From Octopus vulgaris (lineage: Eukaryota), in the NCBI GenBank assembly GCA_951406725.2, contig OX597824.1, positions 44,950,001 to 45,014,000 of the forward strand: a stretch of DNA of 64,000 nucleotides. The letters run 5' to 3'. Position numbers and translations under genes: made by a program. The notes under the pieces were generated by a model, which was not told the origin of the DNA, ran no database searches, and saw nothing but the letters and a program-made list of their open reading frames with translations. Numbering within the stretch: position 1 is the first letter of the stretch; each line of letters begins with the position of its first letter. Below are positions 1 to 59,405 of this stretch, piece by piece.

Positions 1-3000
1 GCCACTATTCAGTTTTTGCTTACTTTCCTTTTGCAAAGATATACCCTTTACAGTTTAAACTGTTGCTACCCATTGTGTGCAATTGCTCATTAACTCTGCT
101 TTATTAAGACTTTCCATTATTTCTGCCCCTCTTACACTCTTTTTCTAGGTAAATGCCTCCAAAGAAAAGACCTTTTGTCGGACAAAGAACACTGGAAGCA
201 GTTCAACAAGCAAGAAGGAGGTCAAGCAGTCAGCCTGACAGAACAACTAACCATCCATTACCGGTGTCACCTGTGTCCCCATTCAACTACTGGTGTACTG
301 TCCGTCGGCTATGCAAAACAGCTTCACAAGTTGCTGCTCGAGCGTCCGAGAGTGAAGACCAGCATGCTGATTGCAAATCTTAAAATGCTGCCACCTGCGC
401 TGCTGAAATGGAAGAACAGCATAGCCTGTGTCTGCTTTGAAATGCCAAAGCAACTGCTGCTGCCCAGGCTAATGCAACAGAAGGTCAACGAGCACTATGC
501 TGGTCCCGTGATGTGGCAGCAAGGGCTCCCACACAAGCTGCCGAACCCGAACAACGACGTGCTCAACAACGGTCTGGCAATACAGCCTCAACAGCGTCTG
601 CCTGAGCTGCTGAAACACAAGAACAGCATTCATGACAGCAGTCACATAATGCTGCTTCAATTGCGTCCATGCAAGCTAATGAATCTGAACAGCAACATGT
701 TCAACGACAGTCCAGCAATGCAGCCTCTGCAGCTGCTGTTTGCAATGCCAGAAAAGGGGTCTTCCTCATGCTCATATCCTAATTTGGTTGTCCACATGGA
801 TTGCATCCAATGCAAGTGACAATTTGATCTCAGCCGACTTCCCTGACCCCGCTATCAACAGATTATTGCCTCGGCAGTGAAGTGTACATGTTCACCCGGG
901 TCATCAAGAATGCTTCTACCTCTGATTGCTGCTTCATGAGGTAAGGGGTCAGCAAGAAATCCCCAAAACAATTCCTCCAGAAAACACAATCCGGGCACGA
1001 TGGGTACCCTCTGTACAGGCGAAGGAAACCAGAGGACAGTGGATTCACAGCACATGTTGGTCCGTATGAAGTAGACAACAGATGGATAGTGCCTTACTGC
1101 CCAATCCTGTCGAAGGCATTCGATGCTCACATAAATGTCGAGCTCTGCAATTCTGTAAAGTCCATCAAATATGTATGCAAGTACATCAACGAAGGCTCTG
1201 ATGCTACTGTGTTCAGCCTGCAACCAGACGGAGTCTGAGATGAAATAACGCAATACCAAGTAGGCAGGTACATAAGTAGTAATGAAGCCTTCTGGCACAT
1301 TTTGGGGTTTCCACAGCATCAAAGCATCCACCAATCCAGCAGCTTGCAGTGCACCTTGAAAGCGGCCAGCATGTGTACTTCACCACTTCCACTGCTGCTC
1401 AACTGATTGAGCAACCAAAAGATACAACACTCACAGCTTTCTTCAAACTCTGCCAGGTAGACCTGTTTGCGCAAGATCTGCTTTATCCTCAAGTCCCATC
1501 ATACTACACATGGAGTAAGTGTAAGTGGCAGTGAAGGAAGTCAGGCTGAACCGTTGATGGTTACTCTGAGATTAAATTTGATTATTGCCTCGGCAGAGTG
1601 TACATGTTCACCCGGGTCATCAAGAATGCTTCTACCTCTGATTGCTGCTTCATGAGGTAAGGGGTCAAAAGTCCTTCAACTAATTAAAGACCATGAATAG
1701 CCATACATGTGGAGAGCCTGCTTACTACGTGGGCTGCTAGAAGACGGTGCACAGTGGGATGCTACATTTGTGGAGGCTGCTGTTTCACAGTCACCGAAAC
1801 GTCTCAGAGCTCTGTTTTCTGTACTCCTGCACATTTGCCAACTTTCCGATTCCCATTCATTGTGGTTAAAGTACAGACATGACCTATCAGAAGACTTCCA
1901 TTACCAGGCCCAACTGCATCATACCTACTTGCCTGCTGAAAATAATTTCATTTACAACTGTGCTTTACTTGACATAGAGAACAAAACTGTTTCTCTGGGA
2001 GGTAATACCTTACCTACATATGGGCTGCCGCAACCATTGCGCCATGGGACACCTTCAATACCAACTGAGTTAATATGAGAAACGTCCTATGACACTGAAG
2101 CCCTTGATCAATACATCCAGCAAGATGAGCCCAAACTTTTTTTTCTTGATGCACCTGGAGGGAAAGGCAAAATGTTCGTTATTCAGCTTCTCCTTGCTAA
2201 AGTAAGGCACTGCAAAGATGTAGCTGTAGCTGTGGCCTCCTCTAGCATTGCAGCAACTTTACTGCCCGGTGACAGGACAGCACACTCAACCTTTAAGCTA
2301 CCATTTGATTTGGCAAGGTCTGAAGTGCCTTCCTGTAACATCACCAAAACATTTGAAAAGGGCTTGCTTCTCCAGAGTTACCAGCTGATAGTTTGGGATG
2401 AATGCACAATGGCCCACAAGCGATCCCTCGAAGCTCTAAATACCACTCTTCAAGACATCAGAGACAGTCCTGCTACAATGGGTGGTATAACTCTTCTCCT
2501 GTCAGGCAATTTCCCATAAACGCTTCCTGTAATACCCAAAGGAACCAAGGAAGATGTAGTCAGCGCCTGCCTAAAGTCCTCCCCCGCTGTGGAAAAATGT
2601 TACAACATTGTCTCTCAAAACAAACATGAGAGTGCAGCTTCGTGATGACCAGATGGCATCAGATTCTTGAATCTGACCATTTTGTCAATCGGCTGTTGTT
2701 CCGCTCGATGAAAACAGAGAACTGTCACTAACCCACCTATGCACCACTGTCAGTAATTCCGCTGAACTAGAGGCACATGTCTTTCCAAATCTACAAAAGA
2801 ACTACCTTGACATGAATTGGATTTCCAGTGGCTGCTCTCAATGCTAAACTGCTGCGTTCGCTTCCCAGAAGGCTGCACGTGTACGGGTCAATTGATTCTG
2901 TACCCAATGACGACTAGGCAGTGAACTATCCAGTGGAGTTTCTTAATTCCCTTGACCCACCTGGCCTGCCTCCTCATACACTGGAAGTTAAAGTCGGAGT

Positions 3001-4310
3001 TCCTGTCATGCTGCTGAGGAATTTAGACCCTCCAAAGCTTTACAATTGGTTATTAAGAAGACTATGCAGTACGTTCTTGAAGTCACCATTTTGTCTGGCT
3101 GTGGCAAAGGAGAGGACGTTTTCATCTCCAGAATCCCCTTCATTCCATCTGGTGCAGATATTCCCTTTGCTTTTCACCGTCTGCAGTTCCCGCTTAGACT
3201 ATGTTTTGCAATGTCAATCAATAAGTCACAGGGGCAGACACTATTTAGATGAATCATGCTTCTCACATGGTCAGCTATATATTGGTTGTTCCCAGGTGGG
3301 AAGCAAGGAAAGTCTCTTCATTTACTCCCCCTAGGGTAGAACGAAAAATATTGTCTACCAAGAGGTATTAAGATGAGACTTCATAACTGTTTACACTTTG
3401 TAAAGGTAATGTGCAGCTTCACAAAGCAGCTGATTTAGACATCATCCTCTCAGAGGTGTGTAATGGGCTTTACATCCACTTTTACTCTAAAACTAACAGC
3501 ACACAGTCAGCCCATTTCACAAAGAGAAACCTATTAAGTTACACCCATCTTAGGGCAGCATTTAGGTTTTTTACAAAAAATAGGAGGGATAATTACTCCA
3601 ACTATGGCTTAAGGGGCGATCGAGGATCTTTAAGGACATAACTTCAACCGATCATTGTTTTCTTATACGCTTCTAATGCATTCAATGTGTAAGCAGAAAG
3701 GAGGCATGCAATGTTACGCCAATTAACTGGTAGAGGCTTATGAAAAGGGCAGAGATACATAGAATGCATTCACTATGACAGTTTTGGGCACTCTGCGACA
3801 TAAATGGTGTGGACAAACATTAAATGTCGATACTACCCATACGTCATGACAACTCATCAATATTCAATCACTCTTCCCATTTTAGTGACGGTCATACTTA
3901 ACAATTGTTTAAACAGCCCAATCCTCAAAAATGCTCACTTGTGAAATACACGTTTTAATTCACTCTCTGTGTCTACATCTGATAAACCCAAATATAACTC
4001 TACACACCATTGCAATGCACACTACAACTTTGCATTATCGGATGGCACTGGGCAGCAGTGATACACAGAAGTATACAATGCGAGTCACTACATGGACGGA
4101 CAAACACTTATTTGTCATAGACTTAGTGATGTTAGATTGCATTGTCAACTCTAACCTTAATCTAAATAAAACTCTATAAAACTTTAGAATGCCCAATTCA
4201 TTTTTGCACTACCAATTGAGGTCTGGACTGCTGTAATGTAGACTGAAACATAACTAGACCCTCTAAATATTTACTACTTTGACCCGTGCAACACCGGGTA
4301 TTATTGCTAG
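1..4310 (+). mobile_element. Helitron, decayed autonomous-type; 5' end probably outside the window
   Basis: RepHel remnants at 153-3376. Canonical 3' end: hairpin acccgtgcaacaccgggt (4282-4299), then CTAG (4307-4310) followed by T. Confidence 0.92.
153..3376 (+). pseudogene. Helitron RepHel (HUH/Y2 Rep plus Pif1-family SF1 helicase), frameshifted with stops
   Basis: Manual translation from 951 gives GYPLYRRR..VDNRWIVPY..AHINVELCNSVKSIKYVCKY (Y2 motif). Also ECFYL.LLLHEVRG (~1625), Walker A FFLDAPGGKGK (~2140-2171), Walker [31 protein letters not shown] and C-terminal KNIVYQEVLR* ending at 3376. Confidence 0.92.
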
Positions 4311-17384: not shown

Positions 17385-18824
17385 AGTAAATGGGAAAAGG
17401 ATTGGTGTGAAATGAAACCAAGACATGAACCTATACTCAATTTGTGATGGTGTACTGATGCACAGAAAGTAGTAATACTTGAAACATTGCAAAAGAAAAT
17501 GTTGAGGGAATTTCATGTTGGACATCCTGATATTTCAAGGATGAAAGCTTTAATGCATAGCTATGTGTACTAGCCAAAAATAGATAGAGAAATCGAAAAT
17601 TTAGTAAAAGGCTGCAGAGGATGTACTGATGATAAAAAGTGAACTTTGGCCAAAAGTAGATGTTCTGTGGTCGAGACTACATATCAATTTTGCTGGTCCC
17701 TTAAATGGCTCATACTACTTAGTGGTAGCAGATAGTTTCTCTAATTGGTTAGAAATTTGTAAGTGTGAAAAGCCAAACTCTTCAACTGCAACAAACTTTC
17801 TACATAAGTTGTTTGTGAGATTTGGCATTCCAGTCACAATAGTGTCCGACAATGAACACAATTCGTGTCTTTTGAGTTTAAAAAGTTTTGTAAAATGTTT
17901 GCTGTAGAACACGCAACTACAGCGCCATACCATACCAGATCTAATGGACAAGCAGAATGCTTTGCCAATATGTTCAAAAGAGTCCTAAGAAAATCAAATA
18001 AGAAAGTCATGGATGAGGGATCTCTACAACAATGCTTAAGAGTATACTGTGTGACACCAAAACCAAATATTCCAGCAGGTGTGTCACCAGTGGAGCTGAT
18101 GCCTCTGAGGAAAATAAAATCAGTCTTCAACAAATTGCTACCTGGTAAGAAAAGAAAAATTGCAATGAATAATGTGGCAGGATATTTCAAACTTGGTGAA
18201 AATGTATTTGTCAGGGCATGCAAGAATGGAAAACGAATTTGGGAAGATGGTGTGGTTGCCAAATGCATAGGAAAAATGCTATACTTGGTAAAAGGAAGAA
18301 AAGGCATATACAAGGGATACGTGAACCAACTGAAAAAAGATTCATTGAGAGTGAACCCAAGAGAATGGAAGAACTAGTGGAATGGTTATTTGGTATTTTT
18401 CAAGTACCAATGCCACTACAAATAATTGAACCCATATGCACAAGTGAAAGAAAAAGAAAATGTATAGAGTTCCTGGAAGTGGATGTCAAATGAAAAAATA
18501 TTAAATGGGTAACTGTATGAAAAACAAAAAACTCTAAAAAGGGAGATGGAGTGATGTAAAAATCATTGCTAATAAAACAAAATTACATTACCTATGAAAA
18601 AAAGAACTTAAAAGGGGAGATATTACAGGGATAATAATAATAATGGAACACCCCTCTCACGTGACGAGTGGTATGTGTTAGTCATTATAAGGACTGTGAC
18701 ATAGGAAGTTGAGGGGGTGTCAGTCAAGTAGTTGGTCATAGATAGTCGTGTCTTATTTGTCTAACTAAAACTATACTGCTATACCGGAATGGACATTATA
18801 ACAGTTCAACTTCGGATTACAACA
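17385..18824 (+). mobile_element. Gypsy/Ty3 LTR retrotransposon, 3' part: integrase, polypurine tract (PPT) and 3' LTR
   Basis: Zn-binding EFHVGHPDISRMK..CRGC; rve core WSRLHINFAGP, FGIPVTIVSDN, TAPYHTRSNGQAE; frameshifted. PPT aaaggggaga at 18611-18620. Confidence 0.9.
18621..18824 (+). repeat. Putative 3' LTR of the Gypsy element
   Basis: Starts tatta (cf. TGTTA) directly after the PPT and ends ..tacaaca. No second LTR is in the window to confirm it. Confidence 0.55.
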
Positions 18825-34741: not shown

Positions 34742-34835
34742 ATTTCATTGGTAAAGCATAAATCTGAAAAAGAAGCACACTAAGTTATAGAGCAATACAC
34801 AATATAAATATAAAGTTAGATGAGGCCAGTTTATA

Positions 34836-34894
34836 GGATTACCCTGGGTTTCATGTCCATAAAGCATTTAGCTTTACAGCGTATCATCGGATCC
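34836..34894 (-). ncRNA. Type I hammerhead motif with mutated core
   Basis: Minus strand: ggat CCGATGA ..ttatggacat GAAA cccagg GTA atcc. The core has C in place of U4. Confidence 0.55.
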
Positions 34895-35498
34895 AAAAAT
34901 CTGTTGGCCTCTCTAGTGAGTAGTCTCTCTAGAATCTAGAGGAGGAAAGGGGATTGTCTCACTTTGGCTATCAATCGCCAGTGACCCTGTTATCCTGTGG
35001 GTTCCAATAGAGCAGCAGGAATTTCCTTAAATGCAAGCACAGTCCAAAGACCTCTGTTCTGGAGTTAAGAATGTTCCCTAGGTCGAGGGAGTCCTTTAGA
35101 ATCCTCACCCATTCTACTACATATAGTTTACAGTGCTGGTCCTGTTTATGTAGGGGCCTGGATTTTCTAGGATTCTTCATGATATTGTGTATGGAATCCC
35201 ATTGTCTTTCAGTTGCCATACATGGCTGGCTAATGACATAACATATTACTTTTCCAGTATCCTGAAGGAAGATATTGGTTGGAGAGGCATTGTTTGAACA
35301 TGTTCTTGGTGCTGTTTCTGTTGGTGTTGCCATTGCTGCTACCACTGTTGTTAGTACTGCTATTTTTGGTACTGGTACTGTTGGTGCTGTCTCTGCCAGT
35401 GTTGGTAATGGTGCTGTTGTTGTTGTTGTTATGGTCATCAGTCATTGATGGAGATACTGTCACCACTTGCTAGAGAGGCCTTAAGCCAATGAGTTTTG

Positions 35499-35557
35499 AG
35501 ATCTGATGATACACCATAATGTTACATGCTTTATGGATGTGAAACCCAGGGTAATCC
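35499..35557 (+). ncRNA. Type I hammerhead ribozyme motif
   Basis: gat CTGATGA t acaccataa..ttatggatgt GAAA cccagg GTA atc. Stem I gat/atc; stem II acaccataa/ttatgg(a)tgt; predicted cleavage after 35553. Confidence 0.7.
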
Positions 35558-35579
35558 TATAAACTGGCCTTAGCTAACT

Positions 35580-35697
<118 letters not shown>

Positions 35698-36446
35698 ATA
35701 CACATATATACACAAATATCACATAATATATAACAAAAATACATATATATATATGTAATAGAAATGCAATCACTTAATCACTACGTATAAAATTTAATAC
35801 CACTAACGAGCATACTGTCTTTAAGACAGCATATTAATGCAAGAATACATGCATACATACATACATACATGCATACATACAAACATACCTACATACATAC
35901 ATACATACATTATTATTATTATTATGGCTGCCCCCTCGTTATCGAGTATGGCCATTGCACGAAGCTTAACTGTTACTGGTGCTGTGATCGAATGTGACTT
36001 TTTAGCCCAGCTAAAGATCTACAATGTCTGGTACAAAATTGGCAACTAAAACCTTTACTGGTAATAGCCGGCTGTAGTTGTAACTGGGCTTTATGTACCT
36101 TTGCATGTCGTTTAAGTCCTCCTACCGAATTACACTCTCTTCCACAAGCTCGACAGATATGATTAGTATGGTGTGTTACACCATCACCAATGATACCTTA
36201 CAGTATGAGTTTAATTCATTTCATGACTGAACTTGTCTTATAATTTACTCATTTTACAAATTAATTTTCCCCATTGAAATTAACTGAAAAAAAAACTAAT
36301 CTGTTCCAGCCCCCAAAAACCACTCAAAAATAATTTTAAAACAGAATAAGATGGAATGAGAGCCCCTTATTCTTTTACTCCCTTCCTCTATGTTGTCATC
36401 TTATTGATATATACCATTGTCATTGTTCATATTTTTTCCCCAATTT

Positions 36447-36502
36447 GTCTCTGATGATGGAATATCCCATACTCGGGGATATCCCAGAAACAGCTGTAAG
36501 AT
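36447..36502 (+). ncRNA. Minimal type I hammerhead ribozyme motif (same family as 38335 and 38438)
   Basis: gtct CTGATGA tggaatatccc-atactcg-gggatatccca GAAA cagctg TA agat. 11-bp stem II with one mismatch and palindromic stem III CAGCTG. Lies within a copy (36425-36570) of the 38.4-kb arm. Confidence 0.75.
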
Positions 36503-36574
36503 TTTGAATTTCTTCCTATAATAATATTGTATATGACTTGAGATGTTTGCCTTGCCTTAATGTTTGACGTCATG

Positions 36575-36617
<43 letters not shown>

Positions 36618-37940
36618 TATGTATGTATGTATGCATATATAATCTAGGGATATCAAGTTCAAAAGAAGCTATGTCCAGTCCCTTAGAATAAAGAAATAAA
36701 GATAAGTTTGAGAGGGAATAAAAATTTACTATGTGTGTGTGTGTATGTGTGTGTGTGTGTCTCTGTGTGTATGTCTGTGTTGTATACAAATGCACACACA
36801 CTTAAAAACTGGACTTTCTATTTGACCCCACTCTTACCAGTGCTACTGCTTTATCTACTTGACACTACTCTTAATCACAGACAACTGCCCTCACCAGTTT
36901 TAGACAAGAGGTTCCATATAAGAACAGGTATGTTTTATTCCCAAACTTGGTTTATTTTTCATTTTTCTCTTTGTTTTGTATATTTTGTTTCTTTCTTGTT
37001 CTCAGTTCTTTTCCCTCTCTCTCCCTCTCTATCTCCTTATTTCTTTCCTTTTCTCTATTTTACTGTTACCTTTTAAACCCTTATATTCTATTTTTCTCAG
37101 TTATTCTCTTTTGTGTATTTCTTACTCTCTACTTCTCTCTTTCTATTTCTTTCAACTCTTCTAGCTTTTCCTTTCTTTCTCTTCCTCTCATCTCTCTTGT
37201 TTTGCATTTTCATTCCCTTTCACCCTTACTCCACCAGCTGCCAGGCTTTTACTTTCTTTACCTCCTCTTCTTCCTTCTTTTTATCTTATTCTCACTCTCC
37301 CTTTCTCTTTTAATTTTCTTTTTCTTTCTAATCTTTGACATTTTTATGTTAATATTACAATGAGTGGCTTTCTTTCCTTGTTTCACTACTTTCACCTGCA
37401 TTGCTACCTTTAACACTTGTCACATAACCTGTACATACACAAACAAAAACTATTTTATTATAGACAAAGCCATTCTCTCCCTCCCTCCAAACACACAGAG
37501 AACAAGGTAACCACTTACATACAGCCTGCACACAGTTATATTAACAAGCACACAGTTATATTAACAAGCACACAGATTAACACAAAATATACTTATTTTA
37601 ATCCATATCTACATATACATGCAATGTTATATGCATGCATACGCACATGATTACACATAGACACACACATTCTTTATATATTCTCATTTCACTTTAGCTA
37701 GAGTAGTTTGGTAACTGTCTGCTACAAACTCACACATAAACATATACATAAGTGCCTGCCATTACGCACACATATTCATATAAATGACCTTTTTCAACTA
37801 CATGATATCTTAAGGTTAATATATGGCTTTTAGGAGAAAATTGTTGTTCATCCTGCCCCATTGACAACAACCAAAGGAAAAAAAAAGAATCAATGTGCAT
37901 ATTCATGTACGCATGTAAATACTTGAATAAACACAAGTTA

Positions 37941-37973
<33 letters not shown>

Positions 37974-38334
37974 CAGCTGAAATTGCAAGGATGATCCGGT
38001 TCGTGACTGAGGATAGAAAGCTTAGAATGACCCATCCTTGTTTTTTTGTATCGTCTATGTGGATGTTTTGTTGTCCCTTTTTGTATCACCTAGTTAGTTG
38101 TCCAGATGTTTTGCGTTCTTGTCCCATTTTGTATTACACACACACACACACACATACAACATATATACAAACAGATATATGTGCTCACATTTACATGCAC
38201 TAATGCAAGAATATATATCCACACAAACATACATACATACATACATACATATAATTGTTAAAGAGGAAAACAAACATTAAGGCAAGGCAAACATCTCAAG
38301 TCATATACAATATTATTATTGGAAAAAATTCAAA

Positions 38335-38390
38335 GTCTTACAGCTGTTTCTGGGATATACCCATATATGGAATATTCCATCATCAGAGAC
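38335..38390 (-). ncRNA. Minimal type I hammerhead ribozyme motif
   Basis: Minus strand: gtct CTGATGA tggaatattcc..gggtatatccca GAAA cagctg TA agac. Stem I is gtct/agac. Confidence 0.75.
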
Positions 38391-38437
38391 AAATAGGGAA
38401 AATAGGGAAAATGAGAATGGTATATTTTTCCCTTTTT

Positions 38438-38493
38438 GTCTCTGATGACAGAATATCCCATGCTTGGGGATATCCCAGAAACAGGTGTAAGAC
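38438..38493 (+). ncRNA. Minimal type I hammerhead ribozyme motif
   Basis: gtct CTGATGA cagaatatccc..gggatatccca GAAA caggtg TA agac. The base of stem II and the stem III loop are mutated. Confidence 0.65.
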
Positions 38494-38671
38494 TTTGAAT
38501 TTTTACCAATAATAATATTGTATATGACTTAAGATGTTTGCCTTGCCTTAATGTTTGTTGTCCTCTTTAACAATTATATATCTGCTGCATCAGAAAGGTA
38601 CCATGCCTGTATCCTGAAAATAGATGTCAAATATGTCCAACCACTGCAGATATTCACTCTACATATATGTT

Positions 38672-38699
<28 letters not shown>

Positions 38700-38707
<8 letters not shown>

Positions 38708-39698
38708 AAACTGTAGTTGTGTGAGTGTCTGTCCCCTTCTATTTAGATTCCTAACTACTCCCACATTTTGCAGTGCAGTTTAACCAAATTCGGGTATCTT
38801 ATAGTCGTGATTCATATCGAGCCCGTCTGGCTACTAGCGTGCGTCTACGATGAGTCTACGATTTTAAAAATAATTTAACATCATTTTTTATTCCATTTTA
38901 ATGCATATTTTTTCATGTGTCGTTGGCGTCCACGCTCACACCTGCACCTGTTTGCTTCTCCCCCTTCTTCCCTCCCTCGTGAAGCTGTGGGGAAGGGTAT
39001 GTAAGGAAATCAACGTCGTAATGCGTTGTTAAGGAGACCAGCGTTCTTTTAGAACAACGACTTCATGGCTTGAAGTCGCCAAAACAGAAATCGCTAAAAA
39101 AGCTGAAACAGATCCACAAAAATGGCAAAAATCTCCACACAGGGCAGGTTTCCTGTGCAAACAATTTGCACAACCGAATGTTTTAGTTGTTGCACAAATC
39201 TTTATATATAAAAGTAAGGTTGTGTGTCTGTCTCCTACGATTTAGATTCCTAACTACTCCCACATTTTGCGATGCAGTTTAACCAAAACCGGGTATCTTA
39301 TAGTCGTGATTCATATCGAGCCCTTCTGGGTATTAGCGCGCGTCTACGATGAGTCTACGATTTAAAAAAAAATTACCATCATTTTTTATTCCATTTTAAT
39401 GCATTTTTCGCTATTATTATAAGGAAGTAACTCTCTAAAAATGTCTACGATGAGTCAACGATTAAAAAAAAAAATTACCATCATTTTTTATTCCATTTTA
39501 ATGCATTTTTCGCTATTATATAAGGGAAGTAACTCTCTAAAAATGTCTACGATGAGTCAACGATTTAAAAAAAAATTACCATAACTTTTTATTCCATTTT
39601 TAATGCATTTTTTGCTATTTTTTTTGCTATAACTCACTAAAAATGCTTATATAGTTATTTCCCTTACAAACCCGAGCAACGCCGGGCGATACTGCTAG
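38700..39698 (+). mobile_element. Composite non-autonomous Helitron: a 5' head with unrelated segment (38700-39198) plus a complete copy (39199-39698)
   Basis: 38700-38910 duplicates 39199-39405 (atttagattcctaactactcccacattttgc..atagtcgtgattcatatcgagccc). A|TC start at 39199, three ~100-bp internal tandem units, and 3' hairpin cccgagcaacgccggg plus CTAG|T at 39695-39699. Confidence 0.88.
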
Positions 39699-39819
39699 TA
39701 TATATATAAAAGACAAAAAAGAGTGAAAAAACTGCAGAAGGCTAGTGTTATATGGTTAAAGAATGTATTTAAATCGTTATGTTAGAAAAATGTTATGAAA
39801 TTTTGTGTATAGTAACATA

Positions 39820-43179: not shown

Positions 43180-46020
43180 ACAGAACATTAAAAGGCAGCA
43201 ACAGAAGGAAGCTACAAGAAATGGCTAGGAAAGTAGATTCTGTTATCAGTAGGATACATACTAAAGATATAGAAGACACTAATTTATTGATCTATGCAGC
43301 GGGGTAGTAGTCACCAGAAGATTAGATATCTCACAGGAAAAGATTAAAAAAGAGCATATGTGGAAAAGGAGACTACAAAATAAAGTGAAGACTTTAAGAC
43401 AAGATCTAAGTAGAATAGAAGCCTGGAAAACAAACAAATTAGGAAACACAAGATGCAAATCCTACCTTGCAGAAATATACTTAGTCAAAGAGAAAGGATT
43501 TGAGACAATAATAGAAGAGTTGAAACAGCGTACCATAGTAGTAGCAGGCAAGCTCTCCAGATATCAGAAAAGAATAGATCAGTATCAACAGAATAGATTA
43601 TTTGAGACAGACCAGAAGAGATTTTATAACCGAATAAATAGTACTGAATGAAGAATTGAAGATGAGAAACCTAATTCAGAGGAAGCTAGAAAGTTCTGGA
43701 GTAATATCTGGGATAAACCAGTCAATCATAATGGAAATGCAGTATGGTTAAAGAAAGGGAGGGAAGAAGTAGTGAGTGAGAAGCCAGATCTAAGATTAAC
43801 TAATGCATTAATGAGTAAAGTATTAGGAAAAATGCTGAATTGGAAGGGCCCAGGATCAAATTTAGTCCAAGGGTACTGGCTAAAGAAATTCAGTAGTTAA
43901 CATTTGAGAAGTTAACAACTTCAGAATTGCCTTAATGGAAGAATAATACCAGACTGGATGACTAGAGGGAGGACAATACTCATTATGAAGGATAAGAGCA
44001 AGGGTAATACAGCTATTAACGATAACCCAATAACTTGTTTACCATTAGTGTGGAAGCTGTTAACAGGAATGCTTTTAGAAAACATTTATGAGCACCTTAA
44101 CAACCAGAATTTATACCAGAAGAACAGAAAGGTTGCAGGAAGAAAGCTAGAGAAATGCATTATCTATTATATGTAGACAAAGCAGTTCTAAAAGAAGTAA
44201 AAGTTATAACAGATTGTAGGAAAGCCTATGACATGATCCAACACTCATGGATAAGTGAATGTTTGAGTATATTCAGTATAGTAGACAACATAAGAGAATT
44301 AATTAGCTTTAGCATGAAGAAATGGCAAGTTGATCTCTACTCAGGTGACACACTCTTAGGGAAAGTTAATATCAAGAGAGGAATTTTCCATGGGGACTCA
44401 TTGCCTCTTTAATATTTGACTTATGTTTGATACCCCTCAGTTTAGTATTAAAGAAGGCAAAGGCAGAGTATCAGTTCAGAAATAGTAATGGAAAAACTTT
44501 GCTCTACATGGATGAGCTGAAATTTTTTAGTAAGAATGAAAATGAGATAGATTCCTTAATACAGACTGTAAAACTCTTCAGCAAAGATATAGGTGTGGAA
44601 TTTGACATAGGCATGGAATTTGCAATATTAGTCATGAGAAAGGGACAGACAGTCAACAGCAAAGGCATCCAACTACCACATGTCCAAACATTAAAATCAT
44701 TGAAAGGAGGAGAGAGTTATAAGTATCTAGAAGTATTGGAATCTGACAGTGTACTAACTACAGAAATGAAAACAAAAATTGAGGAGTACATCAGAAGGGT
44801 GAGGAAGTTAATGAAGTCAAAGCTAAATGATCTGAATCTAGTGAAGGCTGTAAATACTTGGGCAGTATCATTACTTAGATACTCAGCAGCTTTTGTAGAT
44901 TGGACAAAAACTGAATTAGCAAAGCTAGACAGAACAACTAGGAAGGAATTCAATATGAATGGAGGTTTCCACTCAAGGGAAGGAGTAGCAAGATTTCCTA
45001 GAAAGGAAGGTGGAAGAGGGTTAATATCAGTTAGCTAGAGTAGATATAGACTCCTATGTAGGTAATAGCGCAGAAAATTTATTAAGAGCTGCTAGAGTCA
45101 CAGCAAGACATAGGGAAACCAAAATACCAAATGAACTTAAAAACCCCAGAAATTATCTGACTGACATGAGAAGGTGTTACATGGTAGACTCCCAAAGATA
45201 GTTTCAGCAAATAGTAGTAGTGAGACATAGTTGTGGCTGCAGAAAGGAAAGCTGAAGTGGGAGACAGAAAGTTTGTTAGTAAATGCATAAGATCAAGCAC
45301 TAAGGACTAATTGGATGAAAGTCAAGATAGACAAAAACCAAGTAGATTCCCAATGTTGATTATGCAAGTCAAAAGAGGAAGGTGTTACTCATACAGTCAG
45401 TAAATGTAGCATGCTGGCACAGAAAGAATACGAGAAAGGACATGACAATCTAGGGAGAGCAATCCATTTGGAGCTATGTAGAAAGGTAGGATTTAAATAT
45501 ACTGATAAATGGTATGAACATGAATCTAGTAAAGTACTAGAAAGTAAGAAATACAAGATATTGTAGGACTTCAACATTCAGACTGACAAAGTAATAGAAG
45601 TTAGAAGGCCTAATTTGGTAGTATTAGATAAAGAGAATAGAAAGCGCCAGATAAGTGATTTTACAGTCCCAAATGATGAAAAAATTCACGTGAGAAGTAT
45701 AGAAAAAATAGCAAAGTACCAGGCCCTAGCTATTGAATTATAGGGACTATGGAAAGTGCGGATAAAATGTATCCCAGTAGTTATAGGTGCATTGGGAACT
45801 ATCCCTAAAGATTTGAACAGATGGATAGAGGAAATAGGCATAAAAGCCAGTTTAGTACTGCTGCAGAAAATAGTGTTGTTAGGGACGGCTAGGATACTTA
45901 GGAGGGTTCTTGGCATCCTAAGGATACTTAGGAGGGTTACTTGCTGTGACCCGATAGAAGGATTCTTGGCATCTAAGGCTACTTGTTGTAGCCTGATGTT
46001 AGGATTCTTTTATTTTCCGA

Positions 46021-46078
<58 letters not shown>
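43180..46078 (+). mobile_element. R4/Dong-clade non-LTR retrotransposon (RT, CCHC, restriction-like endonuclease), 5'-truncated and decayed, with (AAT)n tail
   Basis: PITCLPLVWKLLT, DCRKAYDMIQHSWI, KRGIFHGDSL, LYMDELK, YKYLEVLE, GGRGL, C.LC..H...C, HDNLG, RRPNLVV..DFTVP..EKIAKY and IPVVIGALGTIPKDL. Followed by (AAT)n at 46025-46078. Confidence 0.9.
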
Positions 46079-46081
<3 letters not shown>

Positions 46082-46082
46082 C

Positions 46083-46260
46083 AGTTTCAAATTTTGGCAC
46101 AAGGCCAACAATTTTAGGGAAGGAGGTTAAGTTGATTACATCAACACCAATATTTGACTGGTATTTTGTTTTAGTAACACCGGAAGAATAAAAGGTAAAG
46201 TTGACCTCAGCAGGATTTAAACACAGAACATAAAGAGCCAGAAGAAATACCACAACACAT
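46083..46260 (-). mobile_element. Family A SINE adjoining the (AAT)n tract
   Basis: gtttcaaattttggcacaaggcc..gttgattacatcaac..aaggtaaagttgacctcagcaggattt. Confidence 0.8.
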
Positions 46261-49599: not shown

Positions 49600-51100
49600 G
49601 TGTAGGTTACGAAAGGAAACACAAATATGAGGTAAAAAAATAAACAGGATGTATTAGGTTGATGCTCAGGAAAATTGAAATAAGTCCTTAATGTTTCCAC
49701 CTATATTCTTGAATGGAAAAGATGGATAAGGAGAGAGAAAAATAAAGAGAAAAGAACAAGCATATTTCAGTTAAACAGTCACTGCATGCTGAAATGACCG
49801 AAGATGGCTCAATAATAAAAATAACTACTGCTGGAGAGCAAAGATGGCTTCTTTTTCTTTTTTTCTTTTTTGCCCCAGTGGTGATTTGCAGTTTTTACCA
49901 CAACTATTTATATAAACAACACCTACCAGTTAAACACAATGCAGACTCATGACAGTTGGCTTTGTGAATACACACGTCTCTTCAGACAATCAACAGAAAG
50001 ATAACATTGATTACATGACTGTCAGACATGTGTATTTAGGTGGCAATGACTTATCATCAGCTTGCTTTGTTTCATGTACCCTTCAGTGGCTAACATACCC
50101 TGTCTTGAAAAGACAAACAGATGGACATTTGAAGAAAGATTGATATTGTTAAGACAAAATCAAAATCAAAATTCCTCCTGCATATTCCACCCACTGTCCC
50201 AGAAGGTACTATACTTACAAGCTTTGATGTCACTAGTCTTTATACCAATATACCTCACACTTTGGACCTGGAAGCAGTCAAAAACTGGGTAGAGAAACAT
50301 AGAGGATGGATAAATGAACACTTCAAAACTGACTTCATCACCAAGGCCACACGCCTGGTACTAGAAGAAAACACCTTTAGATTCAATAATAAAACATATT
50401 GACTGATAAAGGGCACAGCTATGGGGCTACTGTTCCCACCCTCATATGCAATCAAGTCATGGGATACTTGGAAGAAAGGCTTTATGAGGAAGTTGAGAGA
50501 GCTTTTAATCAGGATTGCTAGAAATATATCATTAAAATGTGGAAACACTTCCTCAATGACTGCTTCATCTTTTGGGACAAATCAAATGGGGACTTACAAA
50601 TATTTAATAATATACTCAACACACTTCATCCATCCATCAAATTCATGACAGAATCCAGTTGCAATGAATTACCATTCCTGGATATTGACATGCAAATACA
50701 TGACTCCACAGTCGCTGTAAAAGAATGTGGAGATAGCAGATGTAGAACATGCAACAAAAACAACTTAAAATACCTAGAAAGTGGTTCCCACATAAGATTC
50801 AAGAGTAGATTCTTGTTCAAAGTAAATGCAGATATGAACTGCAAGACACAGAATCTCATATACTGCATTACTTGCCCCAACTGCAAGGAAAATTACATTG
50901 GCAAAACAACAATTCCCTCTGCCAACATGCAAGAACCCACAGACAACACATCCAACAAGAGGAATTGCTCAAGATTCCACTGAGTAAGCATCTAGAAATA
51001 TGTGGTGAAGGACAGCTCAAAATCTTTCACTTTTACAAATGTTCAAGAGATGACCTAAAATTCCAAAAAGCAATGTCAAAAAATTCTCTCCAAAATTAGA
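49600..51100 (+). mobile_element. Penelope-like retroelement (RT plus GIY-YIG), internally deleted and decayed
   Basis: SFDVTSLYTNIPH, KGTAMG, IKFMTE..NELPFLDI, then C..C and CKTQNLIYCITCPNCKENYIGKT. Possible decayed inverted hammerhead at ~49685-49720. Confidence 0.9.
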
Positions 51101-57977: not shown

Positions 57978-59405
57978 AGCCAGTCAGTGGACACTGGTAT
58001 CAACCACGTTTAAATGATGCATTTTATGTGCCACCGGAATAGGAGCCAGTCAGGGAGCACTGGCCACTGCTACAATTCTGGTTTTACTTGACTCAACAGG
58101 TCTTCTCAAGCATATCATATTGTCCAATGCATCAAGGGTACTCTTGAATGGGCTGGGCATGCAACACTGGCATCGGCCATGGCTTCTCAATCACAGAATA
58201 TCTCCAGAGGTCTCGGTCTCCTGTCATTGCCTCTGTGAGGCCCAACGTTTGAAGGTCATGCTTCACTAGCTTATCCCATGTCTTCCTGGGTCTACCTCTT
58301 CCACAGGTTCCTTCCATAGTTAGGGTGTGGCACTTCCTCACACAGCTGTCCTCATCCATATGGAACACATGACTATACCAGCACAGTCGTCTCTCTTGCA
58401 CACCACATTTGATGCTTCTTATGTCCAACTTTTCTCTCAGGTGCCTACACTCTGTTGTGTATGCACACTGACATTAGACATCTAGCAGATCATACTAGCT
58501 TCATTTCTTTCAAGCCTATGCATGTCCTCAGCAGTCACAGCCCATGTTCCACTGCTGCGTAGATGGCAGTCCACACACATGCATCATACAGTCTACCTTT
58601 CATCCTGTGCGAGAGGCCCTTAGTTGCCAGCAGAGGTACGAGCTCCCTGAACTTTGTCCAGGCTATTCTTGTTTTAGTTGCTACACTCTCAGAGCAACCA
58701 CCCCTACTACTTGGTCGCCTAGGTAGTGGTAGCTATCAACTACTTCTAGTTTTTCTCCCTGGCATGTGATGGAATCTGTTTTCTGTACATCTTCAGTGTT
58801 TATTGCCCCTGTGCATCTGCCACACAATAAAACTATCTTCCCAGTTAACCTTCCTTTGATGTTGCTGCACCTTTTATGTGTCCATAGCTTTCACCGGGAG
58901 TTTCTACCCATGCCTTTTCCACAGATTAAATAGGACCATCTGCTTGAAGGGTTTTATGATTTGTCAGCCTTCCTACTTACTAAGATTTTGATTTTTACTA
59001 GGTAAACCCTAAGGCCATTTGATCCTAGACCTTGCTTCCACACCCTAAAGTTTGTCTCTAGTTCTGGTAGTGACTCAGCTTTAAGAACAAGATCATCAAC
59101 ATAGAGGAGCTCCCAGGAGCAGCCTGTCTTCAATTCCTCTGTTATTGCCTGGAGGACTATGATGAATAAGAGGGAGCTGAGAACTGATCCTTGGTAAACC
59201 CCTACTTCCATCTGGAATTCTTCAATATACTCATTGCCAACCCTCACCTTACTGACAGCTTGTACAGCTCTTACCAACCACTCAACTATCCCCAGTTTCC
59301 GCATTGACCACCAGATAAGGGAACAGGGACCTTGTCAAAAGTTTTCTCCAAGTCAACAAAAGCCAAGTACAGAGGTTTATCTTTGGCTAGATATTTCTAG
59401 CCAAA
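57978..59405 (-). mobile_element. RTE LINE RT region to 3' UTR, decayed
   Basis: FVDLEKTFDKVP, GVYQGSVLSSLLF, LLYVDDLVL, YLGDQV, ERRLCWYSHV, GRGRPRKTW. Confidence 0.92.

Follow-up and report, generated by a model that had tools for sequence, protein, structure and literature searches.

A hammerhead-bearing palindrome in Octopus vulgaris as the probable stump of a Penelope-like insertion

The 64,000-nucleotide stretch of Octopus vulgaris DNA analysed here (the window) exhibits a palindrome at positions 38249 to about 38595, each arm of which carries a hammerhead ribozyme motif. This palindrome is almost certainly the remnant of a Penelope-like retrotransposon (Penelope-like element, PLE). The best explanation of the locus as a whole, which we consider highly probable, is the stump of a Hydra-clade PLE insertion, in which two 5'-truncated, hammerhead-bearing 3' ends stand head to head, likely primed from both ends of the cut target and now decaying. 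The locus itself is ordinary repeat debris. The part worth pursuing is the rule by which ends are paired in related copies, and the family statistics are relevant to the question of how inverted pseudo-LTRs (pLTRs) and a one-sided tail arise in Penelope elements.

Anatomy of the palindrome and its hammerhead motifs

The palindrome and the related insertions near it comprise the following features (positions are those of the window).

34742-35591: second PLE insertion, of another family; a GIY-YIG C-terminus and pLTR on the minus strand, and, in inverted orientation, a short-ended pLTR whose hammerhead lies at 35503-35545
36365-36580, plus strand: solo 5'-truncated pLTR of the palindrome's family, an independent insertion; its short end runs into (TA)n, and it differs by 7.8% from the majority
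36447-36502, plus strand: hammerhead of this third copy, within the solo pLTR
38249-38423, minus strand: left arm; 5'-truncated pLTR (3' end) of a probable Hydra-clade PLE, reference positions 208-384
38335-38390, minus strand: left minimal type I hammerhead; intact core and a self-complementary helix III octamer, ACAGCTGT; cleavage is predicted between 38339 and 38338
38424-38425, no strand: head-to-head junction at which the two truncated arms meet; microhomology of 0-3 nt and no body inserted between them
38425 to about 38595, plus strand: right arm; pLTR 5'-truncated more strongly than the left, reference positions 230 to about 400
38438-38493, plus strand: right minimal type I hammerhead; core intact, helix III octamer ACAGGTGT no longer self-complementary, basal stem II pairs gone
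38596-38668, plus strand: flank; fragment of an unrelated dispersed repeat, abutting the tail at a shared CAGAA-like word

The inverted arms (38244-38402 and 38426-38584, 159 nt each, 23 nt apart) are 91% complementary, and the fold of the palindrome has a minimum free energy of -213.9 kcal/mol (z = -28) that none of 100 shuffled sequences equalled. The near-perfect fold-back that a preliminary description had placed at 38249-38579 is thus real, its right end lying about 16 nt further, near 38595. The 23-nt "loop" is not a spacer: it is additional pLTR sequence belonging to the left arm, which extends to 38423, so that the palindrome contains no element body. The left arm ends at the short 3' end of its family, adjoining a TA/TACA microsatellite. 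The right arm passes this short end and enters the first 16 nt or so of the family's tail of about 137 nt; each arm thus holds family sequence absent from the other. The remainder of the right-arm tail was likely lost through a later microhomology deletion, and no remnant of the missing part was found elsewhere in the window. Divergence from the column majority is 4.6% for the left arm and 4.5% for the right, and the two arms share no derived non-CpG change. The exact 24-mer of the junction occurs once in the genome; the nearest other junction, at a locus designated L164, is within 2 mismatches of it.

The chance that the palindrome is an assembly fold-back artefact is negligible. No listed short-read contig bridges the junction, which is expected because the sequence is a high-copy repeat. 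Against an artefact, the arms differ by about 9% through private substitutions (the preliminary description had rightly drawn the same argument from the mismatches), each has the family sequence lacking in the other, and the same layout recurs at 30 of 66 loci of the family.

The third copy of the arm, earlier placed at 36425-36570, is present and begins sooner, near 36365. It was considered as part of one larger element and rejected as such, there being no body between the copies and its divergence being 7.8%. As for the flanking repeat at 38596-38668, its other copies (L221-L227) often occur in inverted pairs beside microsatellites with no nearby hammerhead, and it is possibly another PLE end or a MITE. 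The segment at 38684-39711 is a common dispersed repeat with internal duplications of 100 bp and 499 bp; it is also inserted in the UTR of one PLE copy (L129).

Hammerhead cores were identified at 38442-38482 (plus strand), 38346-38386 (minus) and 36451-36491 (plus), besides the one at 35503-35545 from another family. These 4 matches to the core pattern compare with 0.32 expected, and 1 of 100 shuffles attains 4. The left and third copies exhibit all features of a minimal type I hammerhead (CUGANGA, GAAA, NUH site, helices I and II, palindromic helix III), with two new mismatches in stem II of the left one, whereas the right copy fails at helix III (octamer duplex of -1.6 versus -11.1 kcal/mol). 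The preliminary description had positioned both motifs of the palindrome correctly and read the CAGGTG of the right arm as it stands, but its term "complete" does not hold for the right motif, in which the helix III palindrome and the basal pairs of stem II are gone. As modelled, the right hammerhead is likely dead.

The check that had been proposed against Rfam gave no family match: hammerhead families had 0 matches at the gathering threshold across the window, and none was among the 25 matches at E-value ≤ 5 over 36000-39000. Free folding of the single motifs did not yield the hammerhead fold (z = -0.5 to -1.3), as expected because they are of the dimer type. According to the literature, the motif of an active element would function in dimeric form by way of its palindromic helix III, possibly assisted by a protein. 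Each hammerhead of the palindrome is preceded by its own antisense sequence, and inside the hairpin both cores, on either strand, are predicted to be paired with a probability near 1. Folding of the hairpin is thus predicted to bury either ribozyme core.

The hammerheads are passengers, and decaying copies show no detectable selection on the core. Among 45 arms retrieved through UTR or ORF searches, and thus not selected by the hammerhead motif, the 13 core bases diverge from the column majority by 8.4%, versus 10.0% downstream (p = 0.26), and 12 of the 45 arms have an intact core. Among 149 arms, no stem pair shows more than 2 two-sided changes; the copies are neutral descendants, in which little covariation is to be expected. 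The extra base before GAAA was entertained as a new ribozyme variant and discarded, since it is common among the Hydra hammerheads listed in the supplement of PMC8557442, as far as its accessible part goes.

We also considered whether the locus is a co-opted source of double-stranded RNA, with host transcription and ADAR or Dicer acting on the 150-bp hairpin. The hairpin would be very stable if transcribed, and PLE-derived small RNAs have been reported in rotifers (PMC3846280). Such a role is nevertheless improbable. Each arm has accumulated its own changes, none of them shared or compensating, and the ADAR substrate suggested by the preliminary description is not borne out, there being no A-to-G excess in paired arms (2.3%, versus 2.2% in other arms). 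The 6% of one raw RNA run that was aligned contains no read on the central 38360-38524; this is weak evidence, the run bearing another species label and possibly being from a different species. All 204 aligned RNA reads continue into unlike sequence, and aligned reads and contigs derive almost wholly from paralogues. At the scale of the genome, at least hundreds of long inverted repeats of PLE origin are present and are likely a background source of double-stranded RNA if transcribed.

Identity of the parent element

The arms are the pLTR of an element encoding a reverse transcriptase (RT) and a GIY-YIG endonuclease (EN); the preliminary description had rightly assigned the hammerheads to the Penelope pLTR type. 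Searches were made in the 2.8-Gb assembly of 227 contigs, in which the window lies on C11. Walking upstream in genomic copies, we encountered a pyrimidine-rich UTR, a GIY-YIG C-terminus about 1 kb up, an Asn/Thr-rich linker and then RT motifs. First-look candidates numbered 2230 for the arm (40 scored), 323 for the UTR, 202 for the EN and 65 for the RT; these counts indicate a trend only, because query lengths differ.

Three loci (L096, L129 and L132) each combine a 5'-truncated RT-EN body with two pLTRs, one inverted and one direct, and in L129 and L132 the 3' pLTR carries a hammerhead. In L126 a pLTR hammerhead lies 247 nt ahead of an ATG, the frame of which has the RWK and DKT motifs (RRMRWKVFF and FSDKTGNLY); RWK was seen in only this one natural copy. 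A search with the N-terminal stretch gave one homologue among 1878 longer candidates, a full-length sequence of 904 aa (P0001) with the same layout (E-value = 8 × 10-11), which also matches L132 (E-value = 7 × 10-40). The linker CNCRSGTDC (CxCX5C), CGLC and CKH occur in many copies, and CCHH is absent as judged by eye. In Pfam searches the GIY-YIG domain gave a sub-threshold match only (E-value = 0.24), and the RT pieces and P0001 gave nothing above the cut-off.

An RT followed by a C-terminal GIY-YIG domain in one frame is thus linked to the arm, the frames being broken in every copy seen. No intact autonomous PLE of the kind sought by the preliminary description was found; the element was assembled from several broken loci, among which single ones join the arm to RT and EN. 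The copies exhibit further PLE features, namely 5' truncation, an inverted 5' copy and a tail on one end only, the tail being about 137 nt and not 30-40. Flanks beyond the short and long ends are mostly TA/TG repeats.

By their sequence, the RWK, DKT, CxCX5C, CxxC and CxH motifs and the (TA)n flanks fit the definition of the Hydra clade given in the accessible text of PMC8557442. The Nematis clade was considered first and dropped, the motifs being those of Hydra in the supplement of that paper as far as available. The hammerhead of Hydra-1_Obim differs in sequence, so the octopus element described here is another Hydra family. It is a new family of this clade as judged by its motifs, and the locus is an extreme case of the usual inverted truncation, a known kind of feature.

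The RT-EN linker of four copies (L063, L064, L067 and L096) is a long Asn/Thr-rich stretch of trinucleotide repeats, present in P0001 too, which resembles the N-rich inserts described in rotifer Penelopes. Three copies (L128, L104 and L109) have large inverted partners including UTR and endonuclease sequence, some with secondary insertions. Elsewhere in the window, 50522-50983 (plus strand) contains a fragment of a PLE-like frame with a Cys-pair linker before GIY-YIG, which we take to be Neptune-like. Decayed frames at 855-3334, 17834-18377, 43283-46130 and 58954-59334 are presumably pieces of Helitron helicase, LTR integrase and LINE RT.

Paired short and long ends across the genome

An exact core pattern matched 482 times in the genome (control, 0), in at least two families. 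Our sample of the palindrome's family (family 1) derives from the 100 matches listed, on three contigs (C1-C3); it comprises 66 insertions, the last two listed being left out, one (L139) excluded as a poor match and two (L140/141) merged. An inverted 5' partner is present in 30 of the 66, which agrees with the earlier statement that the inverted layout is a PLE trait, and 17 have two hammerhead regions. In this family, 3' ends fall at two fixed positions: the short end lies about 90 nt past the cleavage site and the long end about 137 nt beyond the short one, both abutting a TA/TG microsatellite. Of the inverted pairs that could be classified, 21 of 22 combine a short and a long end (p = 5 × 10-6), the remaining pair being short plus short. 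Ends were unclassifiable in 8 of the 30 family-1 pairs and in 2 of 11 pairs of the second family, BLAST end points are approximate, and the tail of the window's own palindrome amounts to only 16 nt. In 6 family-1 pairs the arms share no sequence. Neither arm contains the other in 16 of 21 pairs, as in the window, and the long arm contains the short one in 5 of 21. Bodies of varied length, from about 3.5 kb down to zero, separate the inverted pLTRs. Paired arms are nearer to each other than to other copies and share subfamily variants (16 pairs, p = 0.002).

A sister family (family 2; L135, L228-L247) shares hammerhead helices I and III with family 1 and differs in stem II and flanks; no ORF was reached within the flanks retrieved. 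It is inverted at 11 of 21 loci, with short plus long ends in 9 of 9 classifiable pairs, 3 non-overlapping pairs and a tail of 139 nt. Over both families, one short end and one long end, about 138 nt longer, are combined in 30 of 31 classifiable pairs, and 9 pairs have no shared sequence. The third family, at 34742-35591 in the window (1283 first-look candidates), follows the same two-end pattern with a tail of about 60 nt.

The short-plus-long rule and the nine non-overlapping pairs favour priming from both cut ends over a fold-back origin. Judging from this end geometry, we lean towards two-ended priming of reverse transcription at the window insertion. The endonuclease would cut both strands of a TA-rich target, and each 3'-OH would prime at a start site of its own, one long and one short. 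Neither cDNA would get far before aborting (at this locus, synthesis would stop within about 40 nt upstream of the hammerhead), and end-joining would fuse the unfinished cDNA ends. An insertion would gain two ribozymes whenever both cDNAs pass the ribozyme.

The alternative origin of the same PLE remnant is a self-priming, fold-back hairpin, in which a staggered EN cut gives the one-sided tail and asymmetric central deletions scatter the junctions. Long palindromes are deletion-prone, which counts for this scenario; a staggered cut also yields one short and one long end, and the 5 pairs whose long arm contains the short one suit it as well. Head-to-head PLE palindromes have been interpreted in print as products of self-priming (PMC3846280, Discussion), and the tail as a result of EN-mediated resolution (PMC8557442). 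However, each of the nine pairs that share no sequence, like each of the 16 of 21 without arm containment, requires an extra deletion under fold-back. The non-overlapping pairs are not more diverged than the overlapping ones (p = 0.52, 6 versus 15), which is not decisive because the deletion could be immediate. A Poseidon PLE has been observed in vitro to cut and extend both strands, with two RT start sites bounding the tail (PMC11167929), which also speaks against fold-back. We consider the fold-back origin possible but rather doubtful.

Priming from both ends may extend beyond this locus. On balance we are inclined to read the inverted pLTRs and one-sided tail of Penelope elements as programmed twin priming at two fixed RNA start sites, every inverted insertion being short plus long; the start sites would lie about 138 nt apart in the two Hydra families and about 60 nt apart in the third. 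If this is true, the thousands of truncated copies in this genome amount to a naturally preserved archive of the reaction, in which double-hammerhead palindromes represent the shortest products. From the short-plus-long rule and the non-overlapping pairs follows a sharp prediction, which applies both to the in vitro PLE system already available and to data from populations. No relevant work on twin priming in PLEs was found in the searchable literature; older subscription papers (Arkhipova 2006, Pyatkov 2004, Evgen'ev and Arkhipova 2005) fall outside it and may already contain the idea.

The same genome-wide data bear on the proposal of the preliminary description that the palindrome is a ribozyme-flanked, non-autonomous, retrozyme-like unit; on such a reading the unit itself would be transcribed, cleave itself and insert anew. 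Genome-wide, 14 loci have back-to-back cores with a spacing of 20-50 nt, the L164 junction is similar to that of the window, and animal retrozymes have been argued to descend from PLE pLTRs (10.64898/2026.07.22.740005). Yet the 14 pairs span several families (4 of the window family) and their junctions differ, as do all 30 sampled junction pairs from each other; L164 itself has different subfamily sites and its tail on the opposite arm. Such a unit needs tandem ribozymes on the same strand, and a second same-strand match exists at 1 of 66 loci, as a 57-nt fragment. The ribozymes of the palindrome lie on opposite strands, hence excision of a monomer is impossible, and their cores are predicted to be fully paired on both strands. 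The palindrome has no body of its own, both arms being 5'-truncated ends of the element that encodes RT and GIY-YIG, and its junction does not recur exactly. A retrozyme-like mobile palindrome is thus largely refuted, and we regard it as very improbable.

Comparison with known systems

In the accessible text and supplement of Craig et al. 2021 (PMC8557442), members of the Hydra clade such as Hydra-1_Obim and Penelope-13_HM share with the octopus element the RWK and DKT motifs, the CxCX5C linker, CxxC, CxH and a GIY-YIG domain at the C-terminus, as well as (TA)n targets and a type I hammerhead near the 3' end. Many of the Hydra hammerheads listed there also have the extra base before GAAA and a helix III of the ACAG/CTGT type, and in Penelope-13_HM a second hammerhead is carried by a 5'-truncated copy in inverted orientation (File S2). 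In contrast to the usual length of less than 3 kb in this clade, the octopus element is longer, with its long Asn/Thr-rich linker and a 3' UTR of about 0.8 kb, and its tail of about 137 nt exceeds the 30-40 bp described.

The motifs resemble the minimal PLE hammerheads of Cervera and de la Pena 2014 (PMC4209133), as described in its accessible part, in their U-rich 5' flank, short helix I, long helix II and palindromic helix III for action as a dimer. That study reported dual motifs on opposite strands about 100-700 bp apart, many single motifs from truncated PLEs, and low activity. Unlike those hammerheads, the window motifs have C.A instead of G-C beside GAAA; just some 55 nt separate the two cores, and the palindrome is missing from the right copy. 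Inverted pLTRs and opposite-strand hammerhead pairs are therefore already published.

The two start sites bounding the tail, the AT-rich targets and the cutting and extension of both strands in the Poseidon element PAc in vitro (Frangieh et al. 2024, PMC11167929) are like what we propose for the octopus families; the PAc hammerhead is protein-assisted and dispensable for insertion, and inverted repeats are not discussed in the accessible text of that study. PAc belongs to another clade, and unlike there, both ends lie here within the 5' UTR and fall at TA words similar to the target, the long end being 43 nt ahead of the ATG.

Non-LTR retrozymes have in common with the palindrome a type I hammerhead, pLTR ancestry and a non-coding nature. 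They are same-strand tandem repeats, whereas the window holds an opposite-strand pair with a one-off junction, and double-ribozyme palindromes of this kind should not be termed retrozymes. In LINE-1 twin priming, both target strands prime on the element RNA, giving an inverted 5' segment. In contrast to LINE-1, the internal site is fixed here, and the two cDNAs often overlap, duplicating the pLTR.
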